Shown: positions 12,284 through 51,017 of the stretch, piece by piece | Numbering within the stretch: position 1 is the first letter of the stretch | Layout: each line of letters opens with the position of its first letter | Source of the DNA: Vicinamibacteria bacterium | GTDB lineage: Bacteria; Acidobacteriota; Vicinamibacteria; Marinacidobacterales; Marinacidobacteraceae | DNA length: 64,000 nt | NCBI GenBank assembly: GCA_964291235.2 | Contig: OZ219815.1 | Span: forward strand, 128,001 to 192,000 | Direction: 5' to 3' | Made by a program: the position numbers and the translations under genes | Notes under the pieces: generated by a model | Databases searched by the model: none | What the model was told of the DNA's origin: nothing | Seen by the model: the letters and a program-made list of their open reading frames with translations, nothing else

Positions 12284-13728
12284 TCAGGCGGTGAGCCCGG
12301 CGGCGACGAACAGGGACACCGCGACGAGCCCGCCGAGCACTGCGTAGGGGAGCTGGGTGTTCACGTGATCCACCAGGTCGGATCCGGAGGCCATGGAGGC
12401 AATGATGGTGGTGTCCGAGATCGGCGAACAGTGGTCGCCGAAGATGCCGCCCGAAAGCACGGCTCCCACAACCAGGGGAAGGTCGAGGCCGAGCGCGGCG
12501 GCGGCCGGAACCGCGATCGGGAGCATGATGGCGAACGTCCCCCACGATGTCCCGGTGGAGAACGCCACCGCCGAGGTCACCACAAAGAGCACCGCCGGAA
12601 CGAGCCACGCCGGCATGGCCGCTTCCGCGACCCCGGCCAGGTAGATACCCGTCCCCAGGTCGCGCGCCACCGCCGAGATTGCGAACGAAGCCAGCAGCAC
12701 GGCGACGACCGGGACCATTCCCCCGGCGCCCTGCAGAACGAGATCCACCGTTTTCGACACTCGGAGGACCCGCTGGACGATTCCCAGGAGGGCCGCCGTC
12801 AGCACCGCGGCCAGGACAGCCCAGAGAACGGACGTCCCTCCATTCCCGGCGAGCAGGTCGCCTTCGCCGGTGATCCACAGCCCGACGAAGATCATGACCA
12901 GCAGCACCGCCAGGGGAACGATCATGTTCCGGGCCCGGTCGGGAACCCCCGGCCCCGGCGGGAGCGCGAGCACCTCCGTGGAAACGAGCGGACGGGCCCC
13001 TTCGCGGATGACCTGCCCGGTCTCCCGGGCGCGTCGCTGGGCACGCGCCATCGGGCCGAAATCCCTTCCCGAGAGCCCGAAGAAGAAAGCCAGCCCCAGA
13101 GCCGCGAGGGAATAGAAGTTCAGTGGGATGCTCGCGACCAGCACCGAGACCCCACTCTCGATGCCGAGTGTCGCCAGAATCGTGATGATGAGCGCCCCCA
13201 ACCATTCATGGGCAAGAGGATGCAGACGGGAGCCGAAGTCGAATCGGTGAGGTAGGCCAGTTTCTCCCGGGACAGCCGAAAACGATCGAAGAGTGGCCGC
13301 GCCACCGTGCCGCTCACCAGACAGGTGATGCTCGACTCGACGAAGATTCCAAGCCCGAGCAGGAGCGCGAGCGCCTGCGCGCCTCGCGGACCCGCAACCA
13401 GGCGGCGGGACGTCACCCAGTTCACGAATCCGGTGACCCCGCCGGTGAACCCGACCAGCGCCAGCACGCTGCCGACCAGCGTGCTGAAGAGCAGAATGGA
13501 CGGATTCCCCGAAAACGCCTCCGTGAGGCGCGTCACGGTTCCGGCAAGCGCGGAGAAAACGTCTCCGCCACGAAGCACCAGCTCTCCGAACAGGACGCCG
13601 GCGAGCAGCGCCAGCACCGCCTGCCGGGTCGCCAGCGCGACCAGGATCGCGAAGACCGGGGGGAGGACGCTGAGGAAGCCGGGGTCTGCCAAGATCGGGT
13701 GCCGTTTGGCCACCCTATCGTCGCACAC
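12284..13728 (-). pseudogene. Na+/H+ antiporter NhaC-family transporter split by a -1 frameshift
   Basis: ORF 13120..13728 (LSVLPP, REKLAYLTDSTSAPVC..P.NGWG) continues in ORF 12284..13201 (AFSTGTSWGTFAI, GDHCSPISDTT, HVNTQLPYA). One extra G in the minus-strand G5 run at 13195-13199 would restore NGWGALII. Confidence 0.85.
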
Positions 13729-13766
13729 CGGGCCGCGCGCGGTTCGGGCGGTACACTTCTGCCCGG

Positions 13767-28868: not shown

Positions 28869-31208
28869 TTGACGGTGCGGATTCAGCGCGCTGGCGCGTT
28901 CGTCCTCGCGGTGCTGAGCGCCGGCGCCACCGGCGCGGCCCAGGACGATCGGGACCGAGCGCCAGGCGATCCGCGCCAGAGCGGAATCGCGGCGAGTCGC
29001 TCGTCGGCCATCCTGCGGCTGCCCGCTCCCCCCGCCACTTCGCCGAGCGCCGCCGAACTCCGCCGCATGACCCGGGAGGAGCGGGTGCGGGCGCTCAAGG
29101 CCAGAACCTGGGAACTCCACGCCGAACGCGTGCAGGAACCCATCGAGGTTGACGGCTGGCTGGACGAAGCCGCCTGGGAGCGCGCGCGGCCGATCGGGGA
29201 CTTCTACGAGCAGGAGACCGACGAAGGCCTGCCCTCTACCGAAAGGACCATCGTGCGGGTCGTCTATGACGACGAGAACCTCTACTTCGGGTTCTTCTGC
29301 ACCCTGGGCGAGAACGCCGACGACGGGCACCAGACGTCGCACACCCGGCGCACCGCCGGCGAAGGCCGACCGCGCACCATGTTCCGCGACGAGAACATCG
29401 GCAGCGACGATGCCATCGGCATCATGCTGGACGCCTACAACGATCAGCGGAGCGCCATCTTCCTGGCCACCAACGCGAACGGGATCCTGTTCGACATGAG
29501 CCAGAACGGCCAGGGCTCCGAGACCAGGAACATCAACTGGGACATGGTCTGGGAGTCACGCGGACAGACCGTTCCCGGCGGCTGGACCGCGGAGGTACGG
29601 ATCCCCTTCAAATCCCTCCGCTTCCGGCGGCACCTGCCGGGACAGGAGGTGGTGTTCGGAGTCGGTTTCAAGCGGAACATCCCGCTCAAGACCGAGGAGG
29701 TGTACTGGCCGTTCGTCTCCAACGACTCGACCTGGTACCGGCCCGCGGAACTCGGCAAACTGCGCGGCCTCGAGGGCATCCAGCCCGGCCGCAACGTGGA
29801 GATCCGTCCCTACGCGCTCGGCCAGGTCAACGGGGGCGGCGAATGGACGGGCGAGCAGGGTCACGCCGACGGCGGCCTCGACGTGAAGTGGGGCGTCACC
29901 CCGGGTCTGACCGCGGATTTCACCTGGAACACCGACTTCGCGCAGGAGGAGGTGGACGATCTCCAGATCAACTTCACCCGTTTCTCGTTGCGGTTTCCCG
30001 AGAAACGGCAGATTTTCCTGGAAGGCCAGCGGAATTTCACCTTCGGCGAACGCCGGGACGCCGACATCGTCTTCACCCGGAGGATCGGCCTCTCGGATGA
30101 CGGCCACGCAGTTCCGATTCTGGGCGGTGGACGGCTCTCCGGACGGCAGGGCGCTTACACCGTGGGTCTCATGGGGATGGCGACCGCCGCCACCGAAAGC
30201 GCGGTCGGCGAGCGCTTCAGCGTCGCCCGGGTGCGGCGCGACGTCTTCTCGCGTTCCACGGTCGGGGCCGTGTTCACCGACCGGAGCAGCGACGGCGCCT
30301 TCAACCGGGTCGCGGGGCTGGACACCAACCTGCACTTCCGCGACGCCTGGAGTTTCGAGGGAGTCTGGGCCCGGGTGTTCGAGGAGACCGAGCAAAGCAG
30401 CACCGGCCTCGCCGCCGGGCGGTTGATGTACGACGACGACCTGCTCGGGGCGACGGTGAAGTTCATCGAGATCGGTGAGAACTTCCATCCCGGAATCGGT
30501 TTCGTGCAGCGCACCGGGATGCGCAAGACCTTCCTCCAGGCGCGGGTTTCGCCCCGACCGAACGTCCCGTTGATCCGGCAATTCCATCTGCAGGCCAACC
30601 TGAACAACACCCTGAACCTCGAGAACGTGCTGGAGACGCGCCGGGGCACGATGACCGGCCGCGCCACCTTCGAGAGCGGCGACGAAGTCTCCGTCGAGCT
30701 TACGGATCAGTACGAATTCACTACCTACGACTACTCGATCAGCGGGGTGGTGATTCCAGCGGGCGAGTATCCCTTCCGGCGGGCTCAGGTTTCCCTGACG
30801 ACCTACCGCCGCCGTTACGCCTCGGTGCGCGCCGGCTACGAGTTCGGAGGTTTCTGGGGCGGAACGCGCGACCTGTGGACGGTCGGGACGAACTACCGGA
30901 TCAACAAGAACTTCGGGCTGCGCGGCAACTACGCCTACAACCGGATTCGGTTGCCCGGGGGCGATCTGGACACCCACCTGGTTTCCACCCGGATGCAACT
31001 CGCCTTCCGGAACGACCTCATCCTGCTCGGCCTCTTCCAGTACAACAACACGACCGGCGACCTCGCCTCGAATATCCGTTTCAACTGGATCCCCAAGCCC
31101 GGCACCGATTTCTTCCTCGTCTATACCGAACTCGACGAGTGGTCGGAGCTGTTCTTCGTCAAGAACCGCAGCCTCTCCGTCAAGCTGAACTACCTCTTTC
31201 GAATCTAG
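28869..31208 (+). CDS. Carbohydrate-binding family 9-like + DUF5916 outer-membrane protein
   Basis: IEVDGWLDEAAW, YDDENLYF, WTAEVRIPFKSLRF, NTDFAQ.EVD, PEKRQ.FLEG, TRRIG; beta-barrel-like C-terminus KLNYLFRI. Confidence 0.85.
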   Translation: MTVRIQRAGAFVLAVLSAGATGAAQDDRDRAPGDPRQSGIAASRSSAILRLPAPPATSPSAAELRRMTREERVRALKARTWELHAERVQEPIEVDGWLDEAAWERARPIGDFYEQETDEGLPSTERTIVRVVYDDENLYFGFFCTLGENADDGHQTSHTRRTAGEGRPRTMFRDENIGSDDAIGIMLDAYNDQRSAIFLATNANGILFDMSQNGQGSETRNINWDMVWESRGQTVPGGWTAEVRIPFKSLRFRRHLPGQEVVFGVGFKRNIPLKTEEVYWPFVSNDSTWYRPAELGKLRGLEGIQPGRNVEIRPYALGQVNGGGEWTGEQGHADGGLDVKWGVTPGLTADFTWNTDFAQEEVDDLQINFTRFSLRFPEKRQIFLEGQRNFTFGERRDADIVFTRRIGLSDDGHAVPILGGGRLSGRQGAYTVGLMGMATAATESAVGERFSVARVRRDVFSRSTVGAVFTDRSSDGAFNRVAGLDTNLHFRDAWSFEGVWARVFEETEQSSTGLAAGRLMYDDDLLGATVKFIEIGENFHPGIGFVQRTGMRKTFLQARVSPRPNVPLIRQFHLQANLNNTLNLENVLETRRGTMTGRATFESGDEVSVELTDQYEFTTYDYSISGVVIPAGEYPFRRAQVSLTTYRRRYASVRAGYEFGGFWGGTRDLWTVGTNYRINKNFGLRGNYAYNRIRLPGGDLDTHLVSTRMQLAFRNDLILLGLFQYNNTTGDLASNIRFNWIPKPGTDFFLVYTELDEWSELFFVKNRSLSVKLNYLFRI

Positions 31209-37400: not shown

Positions 37401-38660
37401 TCAGTGGTCAACGGTGCGTAATGGCCGGTGTCGCCAGAGCAGCCAGTTCAGGAAGGTCGCCACCGCAGCCATCGCCACCACGATTCCAAAGGCCCCGTCC
37501 CAACCGTGAGCATCGATCAGATACCCCATCCCGACCCCCGTGAAGATCGCGCCCGCCGCTCCGATCCCGTCCACGATTCCGGAGGCGGAAGCCGAGGCTT
37601 TTGTCCCCCCGAAGTCCATCACCATGGCTCCCGACATCAGGGAATAGGGGCCGTAGAGCGTGAAGCCCACGAGCCCAAGCGCCGCTGCCAGCCAGAGGCT
37701 CTCCTCGGCCGGCAATCGGCTGAACAGGTAGATGGAGAGCGTGAGCACGACGCTCATGATCGCAAGCACCGGCCCCCGCCCGGCACCCACCCGGTCGGAA
37801 ACCCACCCGGCGGTTATGGAGCCCGCCGAACCGAGCAGCGGGAAAACTGCCGAGGCGGCGGCCGCGGCGCCGATCCCGGCGCCCGCCTGCACCAGGTAAT
37901 CCACCGACCATCCCCAGAAGGTGTAGCGGATCACGGAGAGCAACAGATAGCTTGTGCACATGATCCAAAACGCCGGGCTCGCCAGCATCCGGCGGCGCAA
38001 GCCGCCCCCCTGCCCGCTCCCGGCAACCGGATCGCGGAGCGTTTCCGGAGGCGCGGGAGCTGGCGGCGCGGCGGGCGGATCCGGCCGGATGAGGCGGTAG
38101 AGCGCGAGCCCGAGCAAAGCCAGCAGGCCGGCGTGCGCCCAAAAAAGTCCGGACCAGCCAAGCGCCACGACCAACACCGCGGCCGAAGCGCGGGCGGCGA
38201 AGTCGCCGAGCTGGTAGCTGATCGACATGAACCCCATCACCCGGCCGCTCTCCCGGCTGGGGTACCAGCGGGCCATGATCGGCATGATGGCCAGCCAGCC
38301 CATCGTCTGGAAATACGCGTTGACGCCCCAGACCGCGACGAAGAAGAGGAGTTCCCGGCCGAAACCGAAGACCGCGTTCATGAGCACGGAACCGAAGACG
38401 CCGATGAAGAACATCGCCTTGCCCCCGATGCGGTCACCGAGGAATCCGTTCAGAAGTTTCGACGCCGCGTACACCGCGAAGTACACCGACAGGATCAGCC
38501 CGGTCTCGGTGCTGGAATAGTCAAAGGCCTCCCCGATCAACGGTAGGGCCACCGGGAGCGTGACGCGGCCCAGGTAGTACCCCGCGTAGGCGACGAACAG
38601 GAGCACCGTCAGCAGCAGGCGCTGCCGCCCAAAACCCGGTGACTCCGCGACGCCCCTCAC
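37401..38660 (-). CDS. MFS transporter, organophosphate:Pi antiporter (GlpT/UhpC)-like
   Basis: YAGYYLGR, GFLGDR, WYPSRESGR, GWVSDR, ASGIVDG; about 12 TM segments. Confidence 0.85.
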   Translation of the reverse strand: MRGVAESPGFGRQRLLLTVLLFVAYAGYYLGRVTLPVALPLIGEAFDYSSTETGLILSVYFAVYAASKLLNGFLGDRIGGKAMFFIGVFGSVLMNAVFGFGRELLFFVAVWGVNAYFQTMGWLAIMPIMARWYPSRESGRVMGFMSISYQLGDFAARASAAVLVVALGWSGLFWAHAGLLALLGLALYRLIRPDPPAAPPAPAPPETLRDPVAGSGQGGGLRRRMLASPAFWIMCTSYLLLSVIRYTFWGWSVDYLVQAGAGIGAAAAASAVFPLLGSAGSITAGWVSDRVGAGRGPVLAIMSVVLTLSIYLFSRLPAEESLWLAAALGLVGFTLYGPYSLMSGAMVMDFGGTKASASASGIVDGIGAAGAIFTGVGMGYLIDAHGWDGAFGIVVAMAAVATFLNWLLWRHRPLRTVDH

Positions 38661-38749
38661 CTCAGCGCCCGCCGAGTTCGATCAATGCTTCCATCCGCGG
38701 GGGTGGGTCCCAACCGGTGCGTTCGGAGTGAGAAGAGGCCAGCCGCTAA

Positions 38750-38956
38750 CAGCCCGTGGACGAGGTGGCGTGAGCACCGAGGCCCCGCCGGGGCACTGCC
38801 CTGCAAGAGGTGCGGCTGACCCAGTTCTCGCGGCGGCGCCAGACAGAGGAAGCCCTGGCGTACTTCGACCGAAGCGCAACGACGAGTGAAGCAAGGGCAA
38901 GCGGTTCAGCCGGTATGTTTGTTGGTCCAACGCCACCTCACCTCGTTTACAGGCTG
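38750..38956. mobile_element. MITE-like element with CAGCC...GGCTG terminal inverted repeats at the left edge of the sterol cassette
   Basis: Left end CAGCCCGTGGACGAGGTG vs reverse complement of right end CAGCCTGTAAACGAGGTG (15/18); no credible ORF inside. Confidence 0.55.
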
Positions 38957-39169
38957 TTCTCGCCGTGGAGCCGCAGGGCTGGCGGCCTCTCAATTACACT
39001 AGCCCCGGTTGCGGGGGAGGAATGTGGGGGGAGGAGAGTCTTGGTTCCGGCTGACTCCAGCCGCTCCACCCCCTCCGTCCCGACCACCGCTGACGGGGAC
39101 GCAACGCCCGGGTCGCCTTCTTCATCCTCCGCAGGCGCGAAGATCCGGCGTCGCAGATTCGAGTGAACT

Positions 39170-40252
39170 ATGAAATCCGGAACCAGGCCAGGACCAGCCA
39201 TGCGGCCCACCGGGCAAATCCGTGAACTGTCCGATGGGCTGAGAAGCGCGTTCGACGGATCGAACGTCAAGGACCGGGTGCAGGACTTCGAAGGATGGAC
39301 CGACCGGGCGTCCCACGCAGATTCCACCCGGGAGTACGACCACACGCGGACCGTCAGGGAGTACTACGACCTCTGTACCGAGTTCATGGTCTGGGGCTGG
39401 GGAGAATCCCTGCACTTTGCGCCGCTGTCGCCTTTCGAGAGCTTGGAGGACTCGAAGATCAGGCACCAGAGAGTCATGATCTCCAAACTCGACCTGCGTC
39501 CGGACATGACGGTGATTGATGTCGGCTGCGGGATCGGCGGTCCGATGCGCCGCGTCGCCCGTGAGGCCGGAGTCAGGGTTGTCGGGATCAACGCCAGTGA
39601 AGTCCAGAGCAACAAGGCCAGGCAATTGAACACCGCTGCGGGACTCGATGACATGACCGAATGTCTGCAATGCAGCTTCATGGACATGAGTGCGATCGCG
39701 GACGAGACCTTCGACCGTGGCTACGCGATCGAATCAACCTGCCATGCGGCCGACAAGGTGGGCGCGTTCGCCGAAATCTACCGTGTCCTGAAGCCCGGAG
39801 CTCTCTTCTGGGGCCAGGAAATGTGCATGACGGACATCTACGACCCGGGCAGCGACCAGCAACGCGCCATCAAGCGGGAGCTCATGCACGGCATCGCGCT
39901 CAAGGACATCGCGACGTTCGGCGAGGTGCATCGGGCGCTCGAAACCGCCGGATTCGAAGTCGTGGAGGGGGCGGATCTCGCCATCGGTCAACAGCGTCCG
40001 CACACGCCGTGGTATCAGCCCATGGAAACGCGGCGCGGGCTGCCCGGGAGCACTTTCCGCCGGATTCCGGTGGGTCGCAGGGCGACGGGGTGGGGAATCA
40101 GGATAGCGGAGTTCCTCGGTGTGTTCCCGAAGGGCTCGGCGGAGGTGGTCGCACTGCTGGATCGGACCGCAAACGCCTATGTCGCGGGGGGCAGGACGGG
40201 AATCTTCACACCGCTTTACTGCTTCGTGGCGCGCCGGCCTCTTTCGGGTTAG
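39170..40252 (+). CDS. Sterol 24-C-methyltransferase (ERG6/SMT)-like SAM methyltransferase
   Basis: All SMT signature regions in order: YYDLCTEFMVWGWGESLHFAP (Region I), IDVGCGIGGP (II), YAIESTCHA (III), FAEIYRVLKPG (IV), PWYQP and C-terminal GGRTGIFTPLYCFVARRP. Confidence 0.85.
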   Translation: MKSGTRPGPAMRPTGQIRELSDGLRSAFDGSNVKDRVQDFEGWTDRASHADSTREYDHTRTVREYYDLCTEFMVWGWGESLHFAPLSPFESLEDSKIRHQRVMISKLDLRPDMTVIDVGCGIGGPMRRVAREAGVRVVGINASEVQSNKARQLNTAAGLDDMTECLQCSFMDMSAIADETFDRGYAIESTCHAADKVGAFAEIYRVLKPGALFWGQEMCMTDIYDPGSDQQRAIKRELMHGIALKDIATFGEVHRALETAGFEVVEGADLAIGQQRPHTPWYQPMETRRGLPGSTFRRIPVGRRATGWGIRIAEFLGVFPKGSAEVVALLDRTANAYVAGGRTGIFTPLYCFVARRPLSG

Positions 40253-40289
40253 CCCCGCCCACCTGGGGGCTCTTCCCCCCGCGCGCCCG

Positions 40290-43200
40290 TCAACCGGACG
40301 CCTCGCTGGCCAGTTCTCGCCGCGCCGAGGTCAGGCGCAGATGGAACGAGGAAAGCGCGGGCACCAGAAACACGATGAGGACCGTGGTGAAGACGATGCC
40401 GCAGCCGATCGAGGCGGAGAAGGGAACGAAGAACTGCGCCTGAATCGCGTCTTCGAGAATCAGGGGCGTGAAGCCGAGAAAGGTCGTCAGGGACGTCAGC
40501 ATGATCGGGCGGAAACGCCCCTTCGCACCCTCGATGATCGCGGTTCGCGCCGGGACGCCGTCCCGGAGTTTCTGATCGGTGAAATCGATCATCACCAGGG
40601 AATCGTTCACCACCACGCCGGCGAGGCCGAAGATCCCGACAAAGGATTGCGCGCTCACGGCTACCCCCAGCACCCAGTGACCCAGGATCACGCCGATGAA
40701 CCCGAACGGGATGATGGCCATGACGATGAACGGTTTGGTGTAGGAGCGCAGGGGGATGGCCAGCAGCGCGAAGATCATGAGCAGCGCGATCACGAATCCC
40801 CGATAGAGACCGCCCAGAGAGTCGAGTTGCTGCTGCTGTTCCCCTCCGAAGGTGTACGTGAGATCCGGGTTCTCGGCGATGAGCCCCGCCAGGATGGTGT
40901 TCTCGAGAATGTCATTGGCGGTCCCGGCGGAAATCACACTGGGATCGACGTCAGCGCTCACCGTGACCACGCGCTGGCCGTCCTGGCGCCGGATGGCCGG
41001 CGGGGAGGTGCCCGAACTCAGGGAAGCCACCCGGCTTATCGGCACGTCGGCGCCGGCTGGCGTCCGGAGCCGGTAACTTTCAACGTCGGTGATCGAGTTC
41101 CGCTGCTCCTCGGGCAGCCGGACGTAAACCCGAACTTCGTCACGTCCTCGCTGCACCCGGACGGCTTCCGCGCCAAAGAAGGCGGCTCGCGTCTGCCACG
41201 CAAGGTCGTCAAGCGTCAGGCCGAAGGTGCGCGCTTCGGGGAGCATTCCCACTTGGATCTCCGGGATGCCGGGAGTGTGATCCGAGCGGATGTCGAAGAC
41301 GCCGCCGACTCCGCCGAGATCTGCGACAGTGGAACTCGCGATCTCGTTGAGGCGTTCCGGATCCGGGTGGGACAGCGCGGCTTCGAGCGGGTTTCCCAGG
41401 GTGAAGATCTGGCTGAAGAAGGTGACCGCCCGCGCCTGAGGCAGGACACCCACCTCCTCACGCCATGCCTGGACGACATCTCCCGAAGTGATGCGCCGCT
41501 GCTGCGCACTCAGGAGCTTGAACTCGATGGTGGCGAGTTTGGCTTCCGGGTTCAGGGTGGGAGAGGGGTTGAGCCCCCCGGTCTCGATTCGAGACCGCCG
41601 ACCGACGACGACCGTAACGCCGGACAGCAGCGGAGGCGCATCCGCGGACCGGCCTTCGGAAAGCCGCTCGATGGCCCTGCGACCGGCCACTTCGAGTTCC
41701 TGCGCCACGGCGTACGTTTGCCGCGCGGTTGTGCCGTCCGGCATCTCGAGCGTGGCGATTGCGAAATCGCCTTCGACCTCGGTCGTGAAGACGGCCGGGA
41801 CGATGCCGGCGGGAATGAGCGAAACGCTCAGGATGAGCAGCGCCACGGCCCCCGAGACCGTTACCCCGGGCCAGTCCGTCGCGAACTGGATCCCGCGATC
41901 CAGCGGCCCTTGGACAAAGCTGTTCAGCAGTGAATCGACACGATTCTGGATTCGGGCGACGAATCGTTCGAAGCGCGTGCCGGGAACCCAATCCGGGCCG
42001 TGCAGATGATGGGACAGGTGGTTGGGCAGCACCAGCAGCGATTCGGCCAACGAAAACAGCAGCATGGCAATGACGATGATCGGCAGCGCCTTCCAGACCT
42101 CGCCGAACCCTGCAGGTATGAAGAGCAGGGGAACGAACGCCACGATCGTCGTCAGCACCGCGAAGATCAGCGGCACCTTGATGCGTCTCGCCCCCCGGAT
42201 TGCCGCCACGACCCCCTGCGCACCGCGCCTTCGTTCGAGGTGGATGTGCTCCGACACGACGATCGCATCGTCCACGACGATGCCGATGGCGAGTACGAAA
42301 GAGAAGAGCGACACCGCGTGGAGCGGAATGTCGAACACCAACATGGCGGCCAGCGCGCCGATTCCGGAAACGCCGAGACCGACGGCGACCCAGAAAGCCA
42401 GCCGGAGTTGGAGGAAAAGACCCAGCGCGAGCAGGACCAGCAACAGCCCCAAGGCCCCATTCTTGAGGAGTAGGGTGGCGCGCTCCACAAAGGTCGAAGA
42501 GTCGTCGAGCCAGATGTTGATGCCCACGCCGTCAGGGAGCATGGGGATCGCCTCGTTCGTGACGTAGCCGCGCACCGCGCGCGCCAAATCCATCACCTTC
42601 TCGCCGTCGGCTCGCGAGATGTCGACGAACACGGCAGGGTGGCCCTCGTGCCGGACGATCAGACCGGCGTCCTGGAAGCCGTCGCGCACCTCGGCAATGT
42701 CACCCAGGCGCACAACGGTGCCGTCGTCGTGCCCGAGGATGACGATGTCCTCGAAATCCTGCTGGTCGTAACTCTGACCGAGGGTCCGAATCCGCACCTG
42801 GGACTGCTCGGTATCGATGCTCCCCGCGGACAGGTCCAGGGAACCTCGGCGAATCGTATTGGCGATGTCGGTCAGCGTGAGCCCAAGAGCCCGCAACCGC
42901 TCCAGCGGCACCTCGATCGAGATCTCGTAGTTGCGCACCCCGCTGGTAGCGACCTGGGACACGTTGGGGAGCGCGGCGAGATCGTCCTCGATACGGTAGG
43001 CGAGTTCCTTCAGCGAGCGTTCGGGAACGTCGCCGTAGAGGATGAGGCGCATTGTGCTCTCGGCGTTCGTCATTTCCCGGATCTGCGGCCGCTCGGCACC
43101 TCCCGGGAAGGTCTGGATCCGCGCGACCGCCGACTCGATTTCATCCTTCTTGGCGTCCATGTCCGTCCCCGAGTTCACTTCGACCCTGACGGACGCCATC

Positions 43201-43493
43201 CCCGGGGCCGCTATGGAGCGGACCGCCTTCACGTCGGCCAGTCCCCGGACCTGATCCTCGATCTTGACGACGATGGCCTCCTCCACCTCTTCGGGCGTCG
43301 CGCCGGGAAACGGCACCGAGATTTCGAACTGGTTGAAGGGCACCGTGGGCCACCCTTCCTGCTCGAGGCCGGTCAGCGACACCAGGCCCACGGCGAGGAT
43401 GCCGAACATCAGCAGATTGGACGCGACGCCGTTGCTCGCCATGTAGGCGATCGGTCCGCGGGGTTCGGCGTGGTTGCCTCGGTCGGAACTCAT
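40290..43493 (-). CDS. RND efflux permease (AcrB/AcrD/AcrF family)
   Basis: FPGATPEEVEE, VRLGDIAEV, IGIVVDDAIVVSE, LTTIVAFVPL, GVVVNDSLV, RFRPIMLTSLTTFLGFTPL. Confidence 0.95.
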   Translation of the reverse strand: MSSDRGNHAEPRGPIAYMASNGVASNLLMFGILAVGLVSLTGLEQEGWPTVPFNQFEISVPFPGATPEEVEEAIVVKIEDQVRGLADVKAVRSIAAPGMASVRVEVNSGTDMDAKKDEIESAVARIQTFPGGAERPQIREMTNAESTMRLILYGDVPERSLKELAYRIEDDLAALPNVSQVATSGVRNYEISIEVPLERLRALGLTLTDIANTIRRGSLDLSAGSIDTEQSQVRIRTLGQSYDQQDFEDIVILGHDDGTVVRLGDIAEVRDGFQDAGLIVRHEGHPAVFVDISRADGEKVMDLARAVRGYVTNEAIPMLPDGVGINIWLDDSSTFVERATLLLKNGALGLLLVLLALGLFLQLRLAFWVAVGLGVSGIGALAAMLVFDIPLHAVSLFSFVLAIGIVVDDAIVVSEHIHLERRRGAQGVVAAIRGARRIKVPLIFAVLTTIVAFVPLLFIPAGFGEVWKALPIIVIAMLLFSLAESLLVLPNHLSHHLHGPDWVPGTRFERFVARIQNRVDSLLNSFVQGPLDRGIQFATDWPGVTVSGAVALLILSVSLIPAGIVPAVFTTEVEGDFAIATLEMPDGTTARQTYAVAQELEVAGRRAIERLSEGRSADAPPLLSGVTVVVGRRSRIETGGLNPSPTLNPEAKLATIEFKLLSAQQRRITSGDVVQAWREEVGVLPQARAVTFFSQIFTLGNPLEAALSHPDPERLNEIASSTVADLGGVGGVFDIRSDHTPGIPEIQVGMLPEARTFGLTLDDLAWQTRAAFFGAEAVRVQRGRDEVRVYVRLPEEQRNSITDVESYRLRTPAGADVPISRVASLSSGTSPPAIRRQDGQRVVTVSADVDPSVISAGTANDILENTILAGLIAENPDLTYTFGGEQQQQLDSLGGLYRGFVIALLMIFALLAIPLRSYTKPFIVMAIIPFGFIGVILGHWVLGVAVSAQSFVGIFGLAGVVVNDSLVMIDFTDQKLRDGVPARTAIIEGAKGRFRPIMLTSLTTFLGFTPLILEDAIQAQFFVPFSASIGCGIVFTTVLIVFLVPALSSFHLRLTSARRELASEASG

Positions 43494-43560
43494 CGGCAAG
43501 GGGCGGGGCGGATCCAGAAATGCGCTCGCGTGTCGGTCGCGCGGCTATCGGCCTCCGCGC

Positions 43561-45582
43561 TCACACGGGATTCGGGATTTGCGCGACCCGGAACTTCAGT
43601 TTCCGGTTCGGGGCCAGGGTCGGGAACGGATTGATGCCCAGCTTGTAGTTGTCGGGCGCCACTTCAAGCTGCAGGTGATACGCGATGAGCAGGACGTTCA
43701 CGGCCATCTGAAGCTCCACCCACCGATGGCCGAGGCACATGTGCGTACCCAGGCCGTAGGGCGCATAGGCGCCCGGTTGCAAATGTTCCGCCCGGTCCGG
43801 GAGGTACCGATCGATGTCGAACTTCAGGGGATCCTTGTACAAGTCATCGGAATAGTGCGGCACCGTCTGGCAAATCAATGCCATCGTCTTCGTCGGTATC
43901 CCGTATCCACTGACAACGCACTCGTTCATGACCGTTCTCAACTGCCAGGGAATCACTGGATACATACGCGAGGATTCCATGCAGAGACGAACCGTGACGT
44001 CGACGCTGTCGTGACTGAAATCATCGTCCTTCGGTTCACGACCGTTACCGAAGAGCGACTCCGCCTCACTACGGATCCTCGCGTACACCTCCGGGTTGCG
44101 AACCATGTTGTACACCGCGAAGGCGAGTCCGCTGCCGAGGTAGATGCTGGCAACCATGGCCGCCACGAACGGAAACGTAAGGTCGGTTTCGGGCAAGAAC
44201 TGTGGATCGCTCTTGTGGAGCTCGAGAAGCGCATCGGCGATGTCCCGGGGCTTCCCCTTGCGCTGGGCCGGCGTGTGTGATGCCGTGATCGCCTCCTGGA
44301 GGCTCTTGACATGCCTTCCGTAGCGTTTCATTCTCGGCGTGGACAGCATGAAATCCGGCAAGGCGCCCTGAACCCGCGTTACCAGCGCGCGGTGTTCAAA
44401 AGCCAGCAACTCGTCCACATAGTGGCTGCAGTCCACTCCCATCGTGAGGTGCGAGATCTGACTGCTGATGTGGTGTTGAAAGCTCTCGGTGCCGCGGAAG
44501 ATGTCCCCCTGTTGCCACCGGCCCAGCGACTTGCGGCAGTCGTCGATCAGCTCCGGTAGTCGCCGCGCCAACGTGGCCCGGGAATACGCGCTCTGGAGCG
44601 ACTTTCGCATTCGATAGTGTTCGGCCCCATCCATTCCCGGCAGGCTCCGGGAGGCTCCGAATGCACGTTCCAGCCGCTCGATGTAGTCCTTGGAACGGAG
44701 GTAGAATCGCCCGTGCTGGTTTACCCAGCGATTGACATCCGGACCCATCAAGGCAACCACCGGCGCACCCCGGATCTTGAAGGGCATTCGGACGACGGGT
44801 CCCTGTTGTCGGTAGATACCGTGCATCGCCTTCGGGATGTTGCCCGAAAGGAAATCACGTTCCCGCAGGACACCGAGGAATCGGAGCCGCGGAATGGGTT
44901 TGGTCCGGAGAACGCGGCGGGTCTTCGGCTTCGCGGTGCTGTCCTTCACGGCGGCGGCAACCGTCCGCCCGATGAGATCCAGCCTGGCTACCAGTTCGAT
45001 GCGGTCGAGGCGCTCGTCGTAGTCCTCTTCCTCGAGCAGCATCTTGAACCCGCCACAGGTGTGCATCAGGGCCACGAGGATCGCATCGCGCGGGTCGGGT
45101 ATCTCGTCGTTCAGGATGACGCTCAGGACTCTCGTCTTGGATTCGCCGCGGGACTCGGCGGCTTGGGCCGGGTAGGTTCCCGAATGGGAGACATCGCGAG
45201 AGAGGCCCCAGAATCCGCCGGTCTGGTGCGTGAGGATGTTCCGCTCCACCAGGCGGTCGAGCGTTGCCGCCACGATCTCGTCGGTGCGGCGCGCGTTTCG
45301 TTCGATCCAGAACTGGGCGTCCGATTTCTCATCGGACTCGGCGATGTCCTTGAGCGTCGGGTCGAGCAGGTCGTCGCCGGTCGGGGTGGGGTCCACCAGG
45401 TACAGCCGTTCCAGATCGGTCTCGATGCGCCGTTCCAGCGCCAGGTCGGCGAGCACCGCTCCGGCCATGACACAGGAGAAATCCCATCCCGGAACCATTT
45501 CCAGATAGCCGCTCTGCTCGTCGAGCATCAGGAGGATCAACTCCTCGGCGATGCGGATCGGGAACTGGGTAGCCGCGCTCAT
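43561..45582 (-). CDS. Fusion protein: N-terminal GPP34/GOLPH3-like domain + cytochrome P450
   Basis: GGAGG SD, ATG 45582. N-terminal IAEELILLMLD..SG, AGAVLADLALERRI, PTGDDLLD, LVERNIL, P.PRDA.LVAL (GPP34-like). C-terminal ESSR (ExxR), DPLKFDIDRY and PYGLGTHMCLG (heme Cys). Confidence 0.88.
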   Translation of the reverse strand: MSAATQFPIRIAEELILLMLDEQSGYLEMVPGWDFSCVMAGAVLADLALERRIETDLERLYLVDPTPTGDDLLDPTLKDIAESDEKSDAQFWIERNARRTDEIVAATLDRLVERNILTHQTGGFWGLSRDVSHSGTYPAQAAESRGESKTRVLSVILNDEIPDPRDAILVALMHTCGGFKMLLEEEDYDERLDRIELVARLDLIGRTVAAAVKDSTAKPKTRRVLRTKPIPRLRFLGVLRERDFLSGNIPKAMHGIYRQQGPVVRMPFKIRGAPVVALMGPDVNRWVNQHGRFYLRSKDYIERLERAFGASRSLPGMDGAEHYRMRKSLQSAYSRATLARRLPELIDDCRKSLGRWQQGDIFRGTESFQHHISSQISHLTMGVDCSHYVDELLAFEHRALVTRVQGALPDFMLSTPRMKRYGRHVKSLQEAITASHTPAQRKGKPRDIADALLELHKSDPQFLPETDLTFPFVAAMVASIYLGSGLAFAVYNMVRNPEVYARIRSEAESLFGNGREPKDDDFSHDSVDVTVRLCMESSRMYPVIPWQLRTVMNECVVSGYGIPTKTMALICQTVPHYSDDLYKDPLKFDIDRYLPDRAEHLQPGAYAPYGLGTHMCLGHRWVELQMAVNVLLIAYHLQLEVAPDNYKLGINPFPTLAPNRKLKFRVAQIPNPV

Positions 45583-45762
45583 CCTCTTCGACCTCCAGAT
45601 CGAGCGGCTTGAGGCCAAGCCACCAGCCCCTCTGGATGGTCCGGTTGAAATACTAGTCCATTCGCAGGCGGCCGGCGGGTCCGGATTCCCCTGGGATCAC
45701 GACCGCCATCCCCGATGGCGCGCGCCAGAAAGCTGGCCGCGCGCGTGGGTAGAGTAGAAGGC

Positions 45763-47142
45763 ATGGGTGAAGTGAAGGGCAGAACGCCGCGGAGGATTGC
45801 CATCGTGGGTGGGGGCGTCTCGGGCCTGGGGGCCGCCTGGGCGCTCCATCAGCATCCGGACCGCTTCGATTTCCGGCTGTTCGAAGCGCAGGCGCAGCTC
45901 GGCGGCAACGCGATCACCGCCGACATGCCGCAGGACGACGGAAGCACGATCCCGTTCGATATCTCCGTCACCGCCTGTATTCCGTCGGCATACCACCACT
46001 TTGTCCTGCTCATGCAGCAACACGGTATCGAGCTGATCGATACCCGGTTCAACTACAGCGTGAGGTATCGAGGCCAGACATATGCCCATGATTTCGACTC
46101 GGACATCAGGCGGCAGTTGCGGCCCGAAATCGAGAAGTTCCAGCGGCTCCTGAAACGTCTCCATTGGTGGGGGCGGCTCAACCTGTCCCGGTCCAAACTG
46201 CTCAGTGCATGCAATCCGTTCAACTACGTCAGCATGGGCGCGCTGTTGAACCTGGGCAGGTACTCGGGGGACTTCCGGTACAAGGTTCTGAAACCCATGT
46301 TCGTCAATTTCCTGATGGCGACGAACGTGTTCGACATGCCGGCGTCGCTCTTTTCTCGGTATCTGGATTTCTTCGACATCGAAACCGCGACGCCGATGCA
46401 GACGTGGGACCAGGGAACGCGGCGGATCTATCAGGAGCTCTCCGCGGCCTTCCCGGAGAAGATCTACCTGAACCGGCCCGTGCGAAAGGTTCACCGGCGC
46501 CGTACCGAAGTAGTCGTAGAGGACGAGAACGGTACGACCGAGACGTTCGATGACGTCGTTTTCGCGTGCAACGCGAACCAGACGCTGATGCTCCTGGACA
46601 AGCCGACGCGGCTGGAGGGTTGGCTCCTCTCCTCGATCCGGTACGAGAGCGAACTGCACAACCATACGGTCGTCCACTCGGACGCCTCGGTCCTTCCGGA
46701 TAATGAGGTCCAGCCATTGGCCACCCGGAGCAACCACATCGAGCAGTACGGTGCGAGGCCCGACAACTACGAAATCACCTACATCATGCACAACCAGCAG
46801 CCGTGGGCGAACAGGTCGGACAAGCCATGCCTCGTGACCTACAACCCGATCAGTCATATCGACGACAGCAAGATCGTCAAGAAGTGGTGGTTTCAGCACA
46901 TCGTGCACGACGTGCCTCACGTGACGTTTCTGACCCAGATGTTTCGCTTCGTTCAGGGCCGGAGGCGAACCTGGCACTGTGGCGCCCACACCCTGATCAA
47001 CAGCCAGGAGACCTGTTTCGTTTCCGGCCTCGTGACGGCGAGGCAGCTCGGAGCCGGCTACCCGTTCCAGGATCCTGAAGCCAGGAAATGGTTCAACTTC
47101 TACGGACGCGTGATGTACGGCTGGCGCTTCAAGGCCGCGTAG
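45763..47142 (+). CDS. FAD-dependent oxidoreductase (amine-oxidase fold; resembles the NAD/FAD-binding partners of lipid methyltransferases)
   Basis: RIAIVGGGVSGLGAAWAL, FEAQAQLGGNA, FDDVVFAC, VVHSDASVLP, QGRRRTWHCGA, ETCFVSG. Confidence 0.82.
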   Translation: MGEVKGRTPRRIAIVGGGVSGLGAAWALHQHPDRFDFRLFEAQAQLGGNAITADMPQDDGSTIPFDISVTACIPSAYHHFVLLMQQHGIELIDTRFNYSVRYRGQTYAHDFDSDIRRQLRPEIEKFQRLLKRLHWWGRLNLSRSKLLSACNPFNYVSMGALLNLGRYSGDFRYKVLKPMFVNFLMATNVFDMPASLFSRYLDFFDIETATPMQTWDQGTRRIYQELSAAFPEKIYLNRPVRKVHRRRTEVVVEDENGTTETFDDVVFACNANQTLMLLDKPTRLEGWLLSSIRYESELHNHTVVHSDASVLPDNEVQPLATRSNHIEQYGARPDNYEITYIMHNQQPWANRSDKPCLVTYNPISHIDDSKIVKKWWFQHIVHDVPHVTFLTQMFRFVQGRRRTWHCGAHTLINSQETCFVSGLVTARQLGAGYPFQDPEARKWFNFYGRVMYGWRFKAA

Positions 47143-48157
47143 CCTCGCGATTCGCGGGCTCGGCGTAGAACTGTCGGCAGTAGCGCCGGTACATCCCGAT
47201 CTCGCCGTCGGAGCGGCACAGGCTCGGGCGCGACCGGTACCGTTTCCGGCTCCAGATCTCCACGTCCTGCCTGACGTCGTGCTTCTGGAAGGTCAGCATC
47301 AACTTGTTCATGAGGTCGGTGCGGAGGGCCGGGGGGAGGAATCTCAGCCCCACGATCGGCCGTTTCGGTTTCCTGAGCCGCCGCAACTGGCTGACCAGCA
47401 CCAGATCGATCAGCGTGCCATCGACGGGCGTCGCTAGCACCCACAGGCGCCCGTCCATTCCAATGGACCGCTCGTGGAACTCCACGAACGAATATCCGAG
47501 CCCGACGACATGGGCGGTGGCAGAGACATCGAACGCGAGATCCACGATCCCGGCGACGCTTTGCGTGCGCCTGAAGTCAAAGCTACTCACCAGATGGGCG
47601 CCGTCCACGGTTACCGCGCCGACCCGACCGACATTGCCGTAGCCGTGCACGTACCGGAGGTGCGCCATGTCCACGGCGTTCTCACTCGTTTCCTGGGGGT
47701 GTCCCCGAAACCGGAGAGTCCGGAACGCCAATTCACACCAGTCGTCCCCGCCGGAAGGCTCTTCGGGAAGGCTCCACTGAGGGGGTCGTCGGTCGATGCC
47801 CCACCAGGCGAAGACGATGCCAAGGATTTCCCGCGTCTCGAATGCCGTCAGCTTCGCGGTCTTCGGCGGCGGGGCAAAGGGAGTGGCGACGCATTGCCCG
47901 CTGACGTCGAACTCGTAGCCGTGAAAGGGACAAACAAGACGGCCATCGCGCACCCGGCCGCCGGCGGCGGGGCCCAGTTCGGACCCGAGGTGCGGACAGA
48001 CCGACTCGGCCACCGAGATCCCGCCGGCATCGTCGCACCAGGCGACGATGTTCTTTCCCATCCAGGACTTCTGGATGAGCTTCACCTTCTCCAGGGACCG
48101 CCGGGTGGCAACGAAATACCAGCCCTCCGGGTACGGAGAGAGCGTGGATTCACTCAT
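47129..48157 (-). CDS. Rieske non-heme iron oxygenase/desaturase, Neverland/DAF-36/KshA-like
   Basis: C-terminal part of ORF 47129..49585, ATG 48157. PYPEGWY, CPHLG...CPFHG (2Fe-2S), ENAVDMAHLRYVH (mononuclear Fe), QDVEIWSRKRY..RP.L...DG.I..YRRYCRQFY. Confidence 0.88.
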   Translation of the reverse strand: MSESTLSPYPEGWYFVATRRSLEKVKLIQKSWMGKNIVAWCDDAGGISVAESVCPHLGSELGPAAGGRVRDGRLVCPFHGYEFDVSGQCVATPFAPPPKTAKLTAFETREILGIVFAWWGIDRRPPQWSLPEEPSGGDDWCELAFRTLRFRGHPQETSENAVDMAHLRYVHGYGNVGRVGAVTVDGAHLVSSFDFRRTQSVAGIVDLAFDVSATAHVVGLGYSFVEFHERSIGMDGRLWVLATPVDGTLIDLVLVSQLRRLRKPKRPIVGLRFLPPALRTDLMNKLMLTFQKHDVRQDVEIWSRKRYRSRPSLCRSDGEIGMYRRYCRQFYAEPANREATRP

Positions 48158-48252: not shown

Positions 48253-49473
48253 CTACTCCGCTGTCCGCACCCGCATTCCCTCGGTCGCGAACTGGATCCC
48301 ACCCACGACCACCTTCTGGCCGTCCTGTAGTCCACCGGTGACGTACACGTCGTCGTTGAAGCGTTGGAGCACGCGAACCGGCACAATCGTCACCGCATCG
48401 TCTCTGAGCGCCCAGACCTCGTTGCCCGGCCTGAGCGCCAGACGCCGGATCCGAAAGTACGCCTCGGGAGCGGCGCCGCCAATCTCGACATCCACAAACT
48501 GACCGACCAGCAGGGGCGGCGCCGAGAGCCCGGCCGGAGATTCGGCGCCCTCGCTCCCGTTGCGGCCCTCCACCGGGGAACCACCCACGAAGGGGTTCGG
48601 GACGCGCACGATCACATCGAGAGTCCGGGTCCCTTCGTCCACTGCCGCCTCGAATCGGTCCACGGTTCCCGCCCAGGCATAGCTGGTGGTTCCGTGCCTG
48701 GCGATGACGCGGGCTGCAACCCTGGTGTCTCCGGAGCCGGCCCGAAGTTCCCAAAGGCCCGGGATGAGCGCCGCGTCGGCGTCGGAAAGGGATACCACGA
48801 TCTCGACCGCATCGGAGGCGTAGATCGCTCCCACGCTCATTCCGGCGGTCACGAATTGCCCGACGCCCACCGTTTCGTGCCGGACTACGGCGTCGAAGGG
48901 CGCCTGGACCGCGGTCCGCGAGAGCAGGAGTTCGGCCTCCGCCAGGAGGGCGCGGTCCCGTTCCAGGGCAGCCCGCGCCGCCTCGAGTTGGGGCTCCCAC
49001 TGCGCCAGGGGACTGACGTCCGCGTTTTGTCCATCGCCCGCCCGGCTTCGGAACGCAGCGTACTGCTCCTTCGCGATCCGTGCTTCTTCCTCGACCTTCA
49101 GCAACTCGACCTGCTGGACGGCGACGCTGGCGCGCGCCTGCTCTCTCCGGTGGCGGTAGTCGGCGTCGTCGAGGCGGAAGACGACCTGGCCCTCGGTCAC
49201 CCGGCCGCCGCTTTCGAAAGCCGGATCGACCCAGACCACGCGTCCGCTCACCCCCGCGGCCACGTCCACCTGCACCCGAGGCCGCACGGTTCCGCTGCCG
49301 TACACCGGAATTGCGCCGGAGCCGGCGACCGCCGGGGCGGTGGACGCGAAGGGAATCTGCGAGGGAGGCTCCCGCCGCTCGGGTTCCGGCCGCTGGGCGA
49401 CCAGCAGGGCCGCAATCCCGAAGGATGCCAGCAGGATCGCCGCCGCCAGGACATATCCCTTGGTTCGATTCAT
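48253..49473 (-). CDS. RND efflux periplasmic adaptor (membrane fusion protein)
   Basis: N-terminal TM; GTVRP, VSGRVV, GG.V..GQV.F.LD..DY, RTAVQAPFDA.V, VDEGTRT, GLQDG. Confidence 0.92.
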   Translation of the reverse strand: MNRTKGYVLAAAILLASFGIAALLVAQRPEPERREPPSQIPFASTAPAVAGSGAIPVYGSGTVRPRVQVDVAAGVSGRVVWVDPAFESGGRVTEGQVVFRLDDADYRHRREQARASVAVQQVELLKVEEEARIAKEQYAAFRSRAGDGQNADVSPLAQWEPQLEAARAALERDRALLAEAELLLSRTAVQAPFDAVVRHETVGVGQFVTAGMSVGAIYASDAVEIVVSLSDADAALIPGLWELRAGSGDTRVAARVIARHGTTSYAWAGTVDRFEAAVDEGTRTLDVIVRVPNPFVGGSPVEGRNGSEGAESPAGLSAPPLLVGQFVDVEIGGAAPEAYFRIRRLALRPGNEVWALRDDAVTIVPVRVLQRFNDDVYVTGGLQDGQKVVVGGIQFATEGMRVRTAE

Positions 49474-51017
49474 CGGTCCGTCGCTCCTTTGGCCGTGGCG
49501 CGGGATCCGTCCATCGGTGCGCGGGCGATCTCGTCCGGAGGCGTCCAGGCGCCTCCCAGGGCGCGGTGAATGGCCAAACGGGCAAGAGAGAGGTTCCGTT
49601 CGGAACCCGCGAGAGCGGATTCCACCTCCAGGAGGTTCCCGGTGGCGTCCAGCAGGTCGCGGTAGCCGCCTACCCCCGACTCGTAGCGTTCTTTCTGGAG
49701 ACCCACGGAGGCTTGCGCCTCCTCCTGCTGCGCCAGCAACGATGCGCGGCGACGGCCCTCGTTCCTCAGCGTGGCAAGGGCCGCTTCCACCTCGTTCACC
49801 GCGGTCACCACCGTCTGCCCGTAGGCAGCGGCCAGTTCGTCAAAACGGAACTCGGCCAATTCGACGCCCTTCGCCAGGCGGCCGCCGTCGAACACCGGCC
49901 GAAGCAGGTTGGACGCCAGGTTCGCGAACCACTGCTGCACGTCGAACAGCCCGCCGCCATCCGTGCTCTGGAGCCCGATGGACCCACGGAGCGAGAGTTG
50001 CGGCATCAACGCCGCGCGACGCGCTTCGGCGGCGTGGCTGGCGGCCTCCAGCCGGTGTCCCGCCGCCTGGACGTCCGGCCGCTGCGACAGGAGGTCCGCC
50101 GGGATTCCGGCCGGCACAGGATCCACGGCAAGGGCGGAAGAAAGGGAATCGGGAAGGATCGCCATCACATCCTTGCGATACCCACCAAGCAGGATCGCGA
50201 GCCCGGATTCCGCCTCGGCAAGCTGGTTCTGGATTCCGGGCATTCCGGCCTCGGCGGCCGAAAGCGCCTGGCGCACGCGGTAGAGGTCGCTCGACCTCGC
50301 GAGTCCGCGTTCGTAGCGACCCCTGACCAGCCGCTCGCGCTCCTCCAGTACCTCTACCTGCCGCCGGGTGACGGTGAGTTGCCGCCGCAAATGGCCGATC
50401 TCAAAGTAAGCCGCGATCGTCTCGGCGAGGATTCCGATACGTGCGGCCTGCAGGTCGAACTCCGAGGCGAGCAGCTCGGATCCCGCGGCGAGCGCGGTGT
50501 GACGGGCGCGGCCCCAGAAATCGGCTTCGTAGGCGAAGTCGGCGCTCAGGGAATAGGTCGGGAAACCCAGCCGGTCGGGAAGCGGAAAGTCAAGGCCGAG
50601 ATCCTCGAGCTGCGCGCCAATGGCGGCGTTGGTCGGCACGTCGAAAGCATCGACCCCGGCGCGGGCTCCGACCACCGGCAGGATCGCCGCGTCGGCCAGC
50701 CGAGCCCGCGTCCTGGCCTGTTCGACCCGGGCCACCGCTTCCGCGACGGAAAAGTTGGAAGCGAGCACCGATTCGACCACCTGGTCGAGCGCCGGATCGG
50801 CGAAGGCCCGCCACCACTCCTGCGCCCGGTAGGGGCCGGCGCCGGGAGTCTCGACGAAGTCGCTCGGCAACTCCGGAGCCGCCTCCTGCGCTGGGGCCGG
50901 AGGAGCGGATCCGGAGACCAGGGAGCAACTGCCGACACCGCCGCCGACCAGGAACACGAAGCCCCAGGCGACGCCGATGGACGCCTGGATCTTCTGGCTG
51001 TTCAATCCGAGCAACAC
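49470..51017 (-). CDS. Outer-membrane efflux lipoprotein (TolC/NodT/OprM family)
   Basis: GGAGG SD, GTG 51017; VGSC lipobox; WWRAF.DP.L, YEADFWGR, PADLLSQRPDV.AA, P.FDGG, A..EVE.AL, ALGGAW. Confidence 0.93.
   Translation of the reverse strand: MLLGLNSQKIQASIGVAWGFVFLVGGGVGSCSLVSGSAPPAPAQEAAPELPSDFVETPGAGPYRAQEWWRAFADPALDQVVESVLASNFSVAEAVARVEQARTRARLADAAILPVVGARAGVDAFDVPTNAAIGAQLEDLGLDFPLPDRLGFPTYSLSADFAYEADFWGRARHTALAAGSELLASEFDLQAARIGILAETIAAYFEIGHLRRQLTVTRRQVEVLEERERLVRGRYERGLARSSDLYRVRQALSAAEAGMPGIQNQLAEAESGLAILLGGYRKDVMAILPDSLSSALAVDPVPAGIPADLLSQRPDVQAAGHRLEAASHAAEARRAALMPQLSLRGSIGLQSTDGGGLFDVQQWFANLASNLLRPVFDGGRLAKGVELAEFRFDELAAAYGQTVVTAVNEVEAALATLRNEGRRRASLLAQQEEAQASVGLQKERYESGVGGYRDLLDATGNLLEVESALAGSERNLSLARLAIHRALGGAWTPPDEIARAPMDGSRATAKGATDR

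Follow-up and report, generated by a model that had tools for sequence, protein, structure and literature searches.

In a 64,000-nucleotide (nt) stretch of contig OZ219815.1 from a Vicinamibacteria bacterium (Acidobacteriota; assembly GCA_964291235.2, positions 128,001 to 192,000 of the forward strand), referred to as the window, we analyzed the gene at 43561..45582, whose product joins a GPP34 domain of the GOLPH3/Vps74 type to a cytochrome P450 (P450). The fusion is real, and its gene neighbourhood suggests modification of a sterol-like lipid rather than manipulation of a host. With moderate confidence we propose that the protein is a cytoplasmic, membrane-associated oxidase belonging to a mobile cassette for the tailoring and export of a sterol-type lipid. 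The architecture is already in print as "GPP34_L" of sponge symbionts (January 2025; Microbiome 2025;13:4, PMC11706023), and the window's protein is a further member of it. New here are the sterol-type cassette context, the loss of the residues that bind phosphatidylinositol 4-phosphate (PI4P) in GOLPH3 and the loss of the acid-alcohol pair in the P450.

The gene and the domains of its product are located as follows:

43561..45582, minus strand: GPP34-P450 fusion gene (P0001), 673 codons plus stop by translation
44944..45552, minus strand: GPP34 (GOLPH3/Vps74-like) domain, residues 11-213 (Pfam PF05719)
44890..44943, minus strand: basic linker, residues 214-231, ending in the conserved KPIP
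43564..44889, minus strand: cytochrome P450 domain, residues 232-673 (Pfam PF00067)

A preliminary description of this DNA, made from its letters alone, had placed a single 673-codon open reading frame (ORF) here with the right coordinates; the gene lies on the minus strand and contains no internal stop, a GGAGG stands 9 nt 5' of its ATG, and there is no open plus-strand frame over 43561..45582, where stops occur throughout. All GPP34-like motifs quoted in that description were found in the translation, as was the basic linker, which reads KPKTRRVLRTKPIP. PF05719 matches residues 11-213 (E 2.1e-34, 119.8 bits versus a cut-off of 29.1, profile positions 1-199 of 201) and PF00067 matches residues 232-653 (E 2.8e-33, 115.8 bits versus 22.8); these were the only two domains found in Pfam and NCBIfam, with no flavin mononucleotide (FMN), flavin adenine dinucleotide (FAD) or iron-sulphur redox domain. 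Neither a signal peptide nor a transmembrane segment was found in the fusion protein, whose sole hydrophobic 19-mer is the I-helix of the P450. The predicted full-length model has a mean local confidence (pLDDT) of 84.3 and a predicted template-modelling score (pTM) of 0.78, with linker residues 218-225 below a pLDDT of 50. The preliminary description had named a missing profile or structural match of the N-terminal region, or a stop or frameshift between the two domains, as reasons to give up the fusion; both kinds of match were obtained and the frame runs through uninterrupted.

That adjacent GPP34_S and P450 genes were merged by an assembly or sequencing error is conceivable in so far as sponge Actinobacteriota possess a stand-alone GPP34 gene with a P450 gene at most five genes away (PMC11706023, accessible part) and as the relatives G040 and G045 gave GPP34-only matches. 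We regard this explanation as negligible and already refuted. Runs X1 (one contig) and X4 (two overlapping contigs) span 43429-45800 with 0 differences, the X5 contig from another study spans 43927-45800 with 94 substitutions, and the three indels listed across four runs, two of them in X5, all lie 5' of the ATG, leaving the ORF in these independent contigs free of indels. We also compiled 77 related loci from species-representative genomes, of which 52 are full-size. In 73 of the 77 the matched frame reaches a stop codon, and in 72 of these, which come from many assemblies, the fusion forms a single ORF of 659-687 amino acids (aa); L042 is truncated by the start of its contig, and four other frames run off a contig end. 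Moreover, the family comprises at least 120 clusters at 69-93% identity, all of about 673 aa and with both domains, and 17 of 55 genomes of the window's order show a match over both domains (from query residue 1-10 to 658-673).

The assignment of the N-terminal domain to GPP34 is also upheld by structure. Its separate model (pLDDT 84.1, pTM 0.84) was compared with solved structures using Foldseek, and all eight matches with E ≤ 1e-3 are GOLPH3/Vps74 chains with template-modelling (TM) scores of 0.60-0.70, the best being 9qpq_B (TM 0.70/0.65); a profile comparison with GOLPH3 (3kn1) gave E 1.2e-11. With GOLPH3 and Vps74 (3kn1, 9qpq, 2zih) the domain shares the fold and a projecting beta-hairpin, located at residues 117-127 (strands 117-120 and 124-127) and carrying F124 and W125, which are invariant in the alignment of relatives. 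It differs from them by an identity of only about 20%, by the absence of the pocket residues, by its strongly acidic character and by being fused to an enzyme.

The PI4P pocket of GOLPH3 is formed by W81, R90, R171 and R174 (Wood et al. 2009, PMC2806290, accessible part), and in the profile alignment these align to V30, A40, D101 and V104 of the window's protein. The same holds for the 40 relatives aligned, in which the positions of R90, R171 and R174 are occupied by A/V, D/E/N and V/I/L/M, never by Arg or Lys, and that of W81 by V/A/M/S, with an invariant tryptophan (W33) three residues past it. In 25 fused representatives that are more distant, no basic residue stands at the R90 or R171 position either, and several keep an Arg at the R174 position. 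A 10-residue segment preceding helix alpha6 of GOLPH3 is missing in the profile alignment. The net charge is -20 for residues 1-215 and +8 for residues 216-235, and among the 40 relatives it ranges from -10 to -23 (median -19) for GPP34, from 0 to +8 for the linker and from +1 to +19 for the P450. The fold is GOLPH3-like, yet, judged by these residues, GOLPH3-type PI4P binding appears not to be conserved. Docking on anionic lipid by the GOLPH3 mechanism is not supported, as the pocket arginines are absent in 40/40 relatives and the domain is negatively charged; the hydrophobic tip of the hairpin and the basic linker would be more plausible membrane contacts.

Microsomal P450s carry a membrane anchor and a halt-transfer sequence directly before the proline-rich start of the P450 fold. 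In the window's protein, position 6 of the Pfam p450 profile aligns at residue 232, directly after the conserved KPIP, in which P231 is invariant and P229 is kept in 38/40 relatives. The idea that GPP34 replaces the N-terminal anchor of such enzymes therefore holds as regards position only, with GPP34 and linker ending at KPIP, and as the suggested sterol link is borne out by the gene neighbours described below, the preliminary interpretation as a whole is partly supported. One further protein, P0163 (872 aa), has two GPP34 stretches ahead of one P450 domain.

The P450 domain was described as complete with its ExxR motif and haem cysteine, and E536, R539 and the haem ligand Cys616 (nt 43735-43737), which lies in the FxxGxxxCxG motif, are indeed invariant in 40/40 relatives. 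The I-helix reads A-S-I-Y-L-G-S and the acid-alcohol pair (A/G-G-x-D/E-T) is absent, with Y481 kept in 40/40 relatives and L, M, P or A at position 482. Since A-G-x-D/E/H-T is retained by most of the more remote fusion proteins and by each of the five intact stand-alone P450s that we aligned, the subfamily has lost the pair secondarily. Loss of the acid-alcohol pair is known in P450s using substrate-assisted or peroxide-type chemistry.

By sequence the best solved relatives of the P450 part are CYP51, CYP24A1 and CYP46A1, and by Foldseek they are the CYP102-like P450DA, CYP51 and CYP46A1 (TM to target 0.74-0.80, identity 14-19%); the domain is an E-class, eukaryote-like P450. It is not a CYP51, as the match of 74.8 bits covers residues 375-647 only, the structural identity is 18-19% and the I-helix signature of CYP51 is lacking. 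In P450 nomenclature, membership in a family needs more than 40% identity. Searching a clustered protein collection with the P450 part returned generic P450 clusters only. The P450 part alone found 237 representatives at E ≤ 1e-30, and among 30 long (598-872 aa) P450-matched representatives 25 have both GPP34 and p450 (down to 26% identity) and two have the P450 only. The other three of the 30, P0217, P0262 and P0267 (711-738 aa, 27-29% identity), are fused C-terminally to two cyclic-nucleotide-binding domains. The two other strong P450 genes of the window's genome are CYP170/183-like and not CYP51; two stand-alone P450 genes of this kind, in tandem at G000:C1:863202-865930 (L002, L003), adjoin a radical-SAM HemN/HutW-like gene.

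The fusion gene is surrounded by genes for putative lipid-modifying enzymes and for a tripartite efflux pump of the resistance-nodulation-division (RND) type:

40290..43499, minus strand: RND permease (AcrB family); Pfam ACR_tran E 1.8e-149, NCBIfam RND_permease_2 389.7 bits
39170..40252, plus strand: sterol C-24 methyltransferase (SMT) homologue, ERG6 type; Pfam Sterol_MT_C 65 bits (cut-off 21.7) plus methyltransferase domains
45715..47142, plus strand: FAD amine-oxidase-fold oxidoreductase; Pfam Amino_oxidase E 5.6e-17
47129..48157, minus strand: KshA-type Rieske oxygenase, probable ATG at 48157; Pfam Rieske and KshA_C
48253..49473, minus strand: RND periplasmic adaptor (membrane fusion protein); Pfam HlyD_3, NCBIfam RND_mfp 145.8 bits (cut-off 94.9)
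49470..51017, minus strand: outer-membrane efflux factor (NodT/TolC type); Pfam OEP, NCBIfam outer_NodT 268.5 bits (cut-off 210)

The permease gene follows the fusion gene on the same strand after 61 nt and is convergent with the SMT gene, while the FAD oxidase gene is divergent from the fusion gene with a spacer of 132 nt. The genome contains no second match of the SMT kind, and the family was found in 0/14 control genomes; KshA_C was found in one of the 14, below the cut-off. Among solved proteins, those closest to the Rieske protein are 3-ketosteroid 9alpha-hydroxylases (4qdc, E 2e-26). The Rieske protein was rejected as an SdmA equivalog, reaching 35 bits versus a cut-off of 600.

To follow this neighbourhood through the family, the window proteins were compared with the 77 loci by tblastn (at least 50% query cover, E ≤ 1e-10). 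The Rieske gene was found in 48 loci, the adaptor in 41, the outer-membrane factor in 34, the SMT in 32 and the FAD oxidase in 27, and the permease in 42 loci at 50% identity or more and in 46 at any identity. Control genes from the flanks (GGT, proline racemase, MFS) were present in 7-10 loci, all of them close relatives. In the 52 full-size loci at least one of SMT, Rieske and FAD oxidase occurs in 46, at least two occur in 25, and some cassette gene occurs in 49. The linkage to the SMT reaches both deep clades of the subfamily, and gene order and strand of the cassette vary between phyla, which favours functional linkage over inherited synteny. When the ORFs of the 77 loci (at least 110 aa) were clustered, no further conserved partner emerged, and most of the extra ORF clusters checked by position were antisense overlaps of known genes. 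No GPP34-Rieske fusion was found among the longer Rieske relatives; one of these relatives, the metagenomic P0272 (675 aa), combines MMPL, Rieske and KshA_C, is 58% identical to the window's Rieske protein and is either a true fusion or a merged gene call.

The distribution of the gene points to horizontal transfer. Its closest neighbours in the tree are uncultured Acidobacteriota/Vicinamibacteria, with 87% identity to L008, the Rhodothermota are nested inside the Acidobacteriota clade and the Pseudomonadota occur in at least three places, in a FastTree reconstruction with SH-like support only. The GC content is 0.62-0.66 over 38001-48000 compared to about 0.68 in both flanks, a dip of the cassette that is consistent with acquisition by transfer. 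Within the window's order, matches were found in 20 of the 27 other genomes from the small-genome family to which it belongs (2.7-4.9 Mb), in 0/8 genomes of the family f2 and in 1/19 of the family f3, the latter being a plain P450. The window's 3.45-Mb, two-contig genome has no other GPP34 match, and the GPP34 family had no match in the 14 control genomes. A same-genus genome contains a second GPP34-P450 copy, 36% identical and with one in-frame TAG (G035:C12:61750-63681, counted among the 17 of 55), and another relative has a 68-residue N-terminal piece of GPP34 only, with 78% identity and possibly a remnant (G020:C1:2319756-2319959). Some runs labelled 'sponge metagenome' contain a small share of the sequence words, irrespective of their position, and no RNA run was among the runs listed as containing the sequence. 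In the Pseudomonadales locus L070 an MMPL transporter (12863-15151, minus strand) whose sequence matches sterol-sensing and Patched domains comes after the fusion gene, and about 3.5 kb upstream lies a tyrosine-recombinase (phage integrase family) gene (L070:5493-6482, minus strand).

According to the accessible part of PMC11706023, 656 of 663 long GPP34 proteins have the GPP34-P450 form, and GPP34_L is monophyletic, occurs in 14 of the 16 bacterial phyla encoding GPP34 and in 85.5% of 76 sponge Acidobacteriota genomes, has been reported from no bacteria other than symbionts of sponges (and corals) and shows expression in metatranscriptomes of Aplysina aerophoba. A stand-alone GPP34 protein of Streptomyces, SCO4440, has been linked to peptidoglycan remodelling in a source likewise accessible in part. 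We found no literature joining GPP34, P450, sterol and bacteria, and a search on Golgi phosphoprotein 3 in sponge symbionts returned, besides PMC11706023, one unrelated review.

In the window's own genome, which is 90.3% complete, neither a squalene-hopene/oxidosqualene cyclase (PF13243) nor a squalene epoxidase (PF08491) was matched, and the substrate there probably comes from outside, for example from the host, for this reason. Tailoring of an externally supplied sterol is the simplest reading for this genome only. It also encodes two ERG4/ERG24-family reductase homologues (G000:C1:294547-295596 and G000:C2:1855712-1856770; L084:8518-9600 and L085:8635-9774), a family without a match in the 14 control genomes, and the first of these genes is directly preceded by a short-chain dehydrogenase gene, whose stop overlaps the start of the reductase gene. 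Ten other carrier genomes with single chromosome-level records were examined for the cyclase, and its match is absent in four, strong (at least 184 bits) in five and weak (79 bits) in one, hopene and sterol types not being told apart in these matches. About 3.5 kb from one of the ERG4/ERG24 genes a eukaryote-like leucine-rich-repeat protein of 407 aa is encoded (L084:13114-14337, minus strand). Two large paralogous DUF5916 proteins of 779 and 803 aa are encoded in the window at 28869-31208 (plus strand) and at L084:1127-3538 (plus strand).

Building on the observed architecture, fold, haem ligand and cassette linkage and on the loss of the pocket residues and of the acid-alcohol pair, we infer the substrate, the cellular location, the role of GPP34 and the reaction as follows. 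The fusion protein would act within the bacterium, on the inner side of its cytoplasmic membrane. Its P450 may be the oxidase there, in a horizontally mobile cassette whose other enzymes, the ERG6-type SMT, the KshA-type Rieske oxygenase and the FAD oxidase, would take part in tailoring a sterol-type lipid, and the tailored lipid would then be handed to the tripartite RND pump. GPP34 would take the place of the microsomal N-terminal anchor and is probably a peripheral docking module or a module handling lipid or a partner, not acting via the PI4P pocket of GOLPH3, which is lost.

Several observations weigh against such a role. The loss of the acid and the Thr from the I-helix puts ordinary monooxygenase chemistry in doubt, as far as the sequence tells, and the clustered ORFs (at least 110 aa) of the 77 loci showed neither a ferredoxin nor a reductase gene in the cassette. 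The best NCBIfam matches of the P450 are a pentalenene oxygenase and an albaflavenone monooxygenase, all far below the cut-off, and with these terpenoid oxygenases as the nearest models the substrate might also be a non-sterol terpenoid or another lipid. The best solved relative of the FAD oxidase is the polyketide-acting LkcE (E 3.2e-26), and the pump falls into the generic multidrug class (HAE1). Nine of the 77 loci, including three of the 52 full-size ones (L063, L070 and L071), are without the window's cassette genes within 10 kb, and in L063 the fusion gene lies among glycosidases. With strong cyclase matches in five of ten carriers, a supply of substrate from outside does not apply to the whole family. 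Finally, the pocket comparison is a profile-to-sequence alignment at about 20% identity and not a superposition, and secretion by a system independent of a Sec signal is possible.

Some of these points would be explained if the P450, the Rieske oxygenase and the flavoenzyme served detoxification, oxidising a toxic non-sterol lipophile (terpenoid, polyketide or alkaloid) of the sponge or of other symbionts that the RND pump then expels. The pump with its adaptor and outer-membrane factor is of a generic multidrug type, the FAD oxidase resembles LkcE, the nearest NCBIfam models of the P450 are terpenoid oxygenases, and its nearest stand-alone relatives are CYP170/183-like, as are the tandem P450s of the genome. 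Nevertheless, we consider detoxification unlikely, as an SMT with the Sterol_MT_C domain is linked to the fusion gene in 32 of 77 loci and in both deep clades, the closest solved relatives of the Rieske protein are steroid hydroxylases and ERG4/ERG24 reductases are encoded in the genome.

Less probable still, and in our view quite improbable, is the hypothesis put forward in PMC11706023 that GPP34 proteins, including the P450-fused ones, are secreted effectors that bind host PI4P and block phagosome maturation. The restriction of the family to sponge (and coral) symbionts and its expression in Aplysina aerophoba reported there would fit such a role, and so would the GOLPH3 fold confirmed here and the confinement of the gene to one small-genome family within the window's order. 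However, the positions of R90, R171 and R174 hold Arg or Lys in 0/40 relatives and that of W81 holds V/A/M/S, R90 and R171 are replaced by non-basic residues in the 25 distant fused representatives too (several with an Arg at R174), and the GPP34 domain is acidic throughout. The protein also has no signal peptide, its second half, a haem enzyme whose Cys ligand is invariant, needs an intracellular reductant, and the gene stands in operons together with genes for metabolic enzymes and a pump. The accessible text of PMC11706023 does not contain the word sterol and gives flanking genes for the short form only. The window's protein has the same two-domain order as GPP34_L, without any architectural difference. 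What differs is the reading, as its gene neighbourhood, the loss of the pocket residues and its acidic character lead us to favour intracellular lipid tailoring over a secreted effector.

The combination can also be set beside better known systems. The CYP51-ferredoxin fusion of Methylococcus capsulatus (6mcw, 7snm) likewise has an E-class P450 fold and a sterol context, and among solved structures the window's P450 finds its best sequence match in a CYP51 chain (6mi0, 74.8 bits), with CYP51 also ranking near the top in the structural comparison (TM to target 0.78-0.80). In contrast, the I-helix reads A-G-H-H-T-S-S in the Methylococcus CYP51 instead of A-S-I-Y-L-G-S, and the fusion partner of that CYP51 is a C-terminal ferredoxin instead of an N-terminal GPP34. 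P450 BM3/CYP102 and P450DA also combine a P450 with a second domain, and haem domains of the CYP102 type are among the best structural matches, whereas the domain fused in the window's protein is not a redox module. De novo sterol clusters from sponge symbionts and further uncultured bacteria (Brown et al. 2023, PMC10070321; Ircinia, PMC9531527) share the ERG6-type SMT, the occurrence in sponge symbionts of many phyla and the signs of transfer with the cassette described here. They hold OSC/SMO, ERG11 (CYP51), ERG24 and sdmA/sdmB (Brown 2023, Supplementary Data 1), none of which is part of the window's cassette, and in the readable part of the Brown 2023 supplements P450, Golgi, GPP34, Rieske, Acidobacteri and efflux are all unmentioned.

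As the acid-Thr pair is replaced by an invariant Tyr and a Leu/Met, the P450 could possibly be something other than a monooxygenase. A far-reaching and rather doubtful version of the sterol-tailoring proposal would be that it rearranges its substrate in the manner of CYP74/CYP8, acting on an oxygenated sterol delivered by the Rieske or flavin enzymes, with the acidic GPP34 handing over the lipid or recruiting a partner at the membrane. Host sterols might in this way be made into unusual alkylated or oxidised sterols and pumped out, and bacteria without their own sterol synthesis might shape the 'sponge' sterol biomarker profile.

GPP34_L belongs to the most widespread sponge-symbiont-specific proteins described. 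If it is indeed part of a cassette for sterol tailoring and export, the mechanism of host manipulation proposed for it would need to be revised, and symbionts that are unable to make sterols could alter the sterols of their host, which would bear on the debate about sponge sterane biomarkers.

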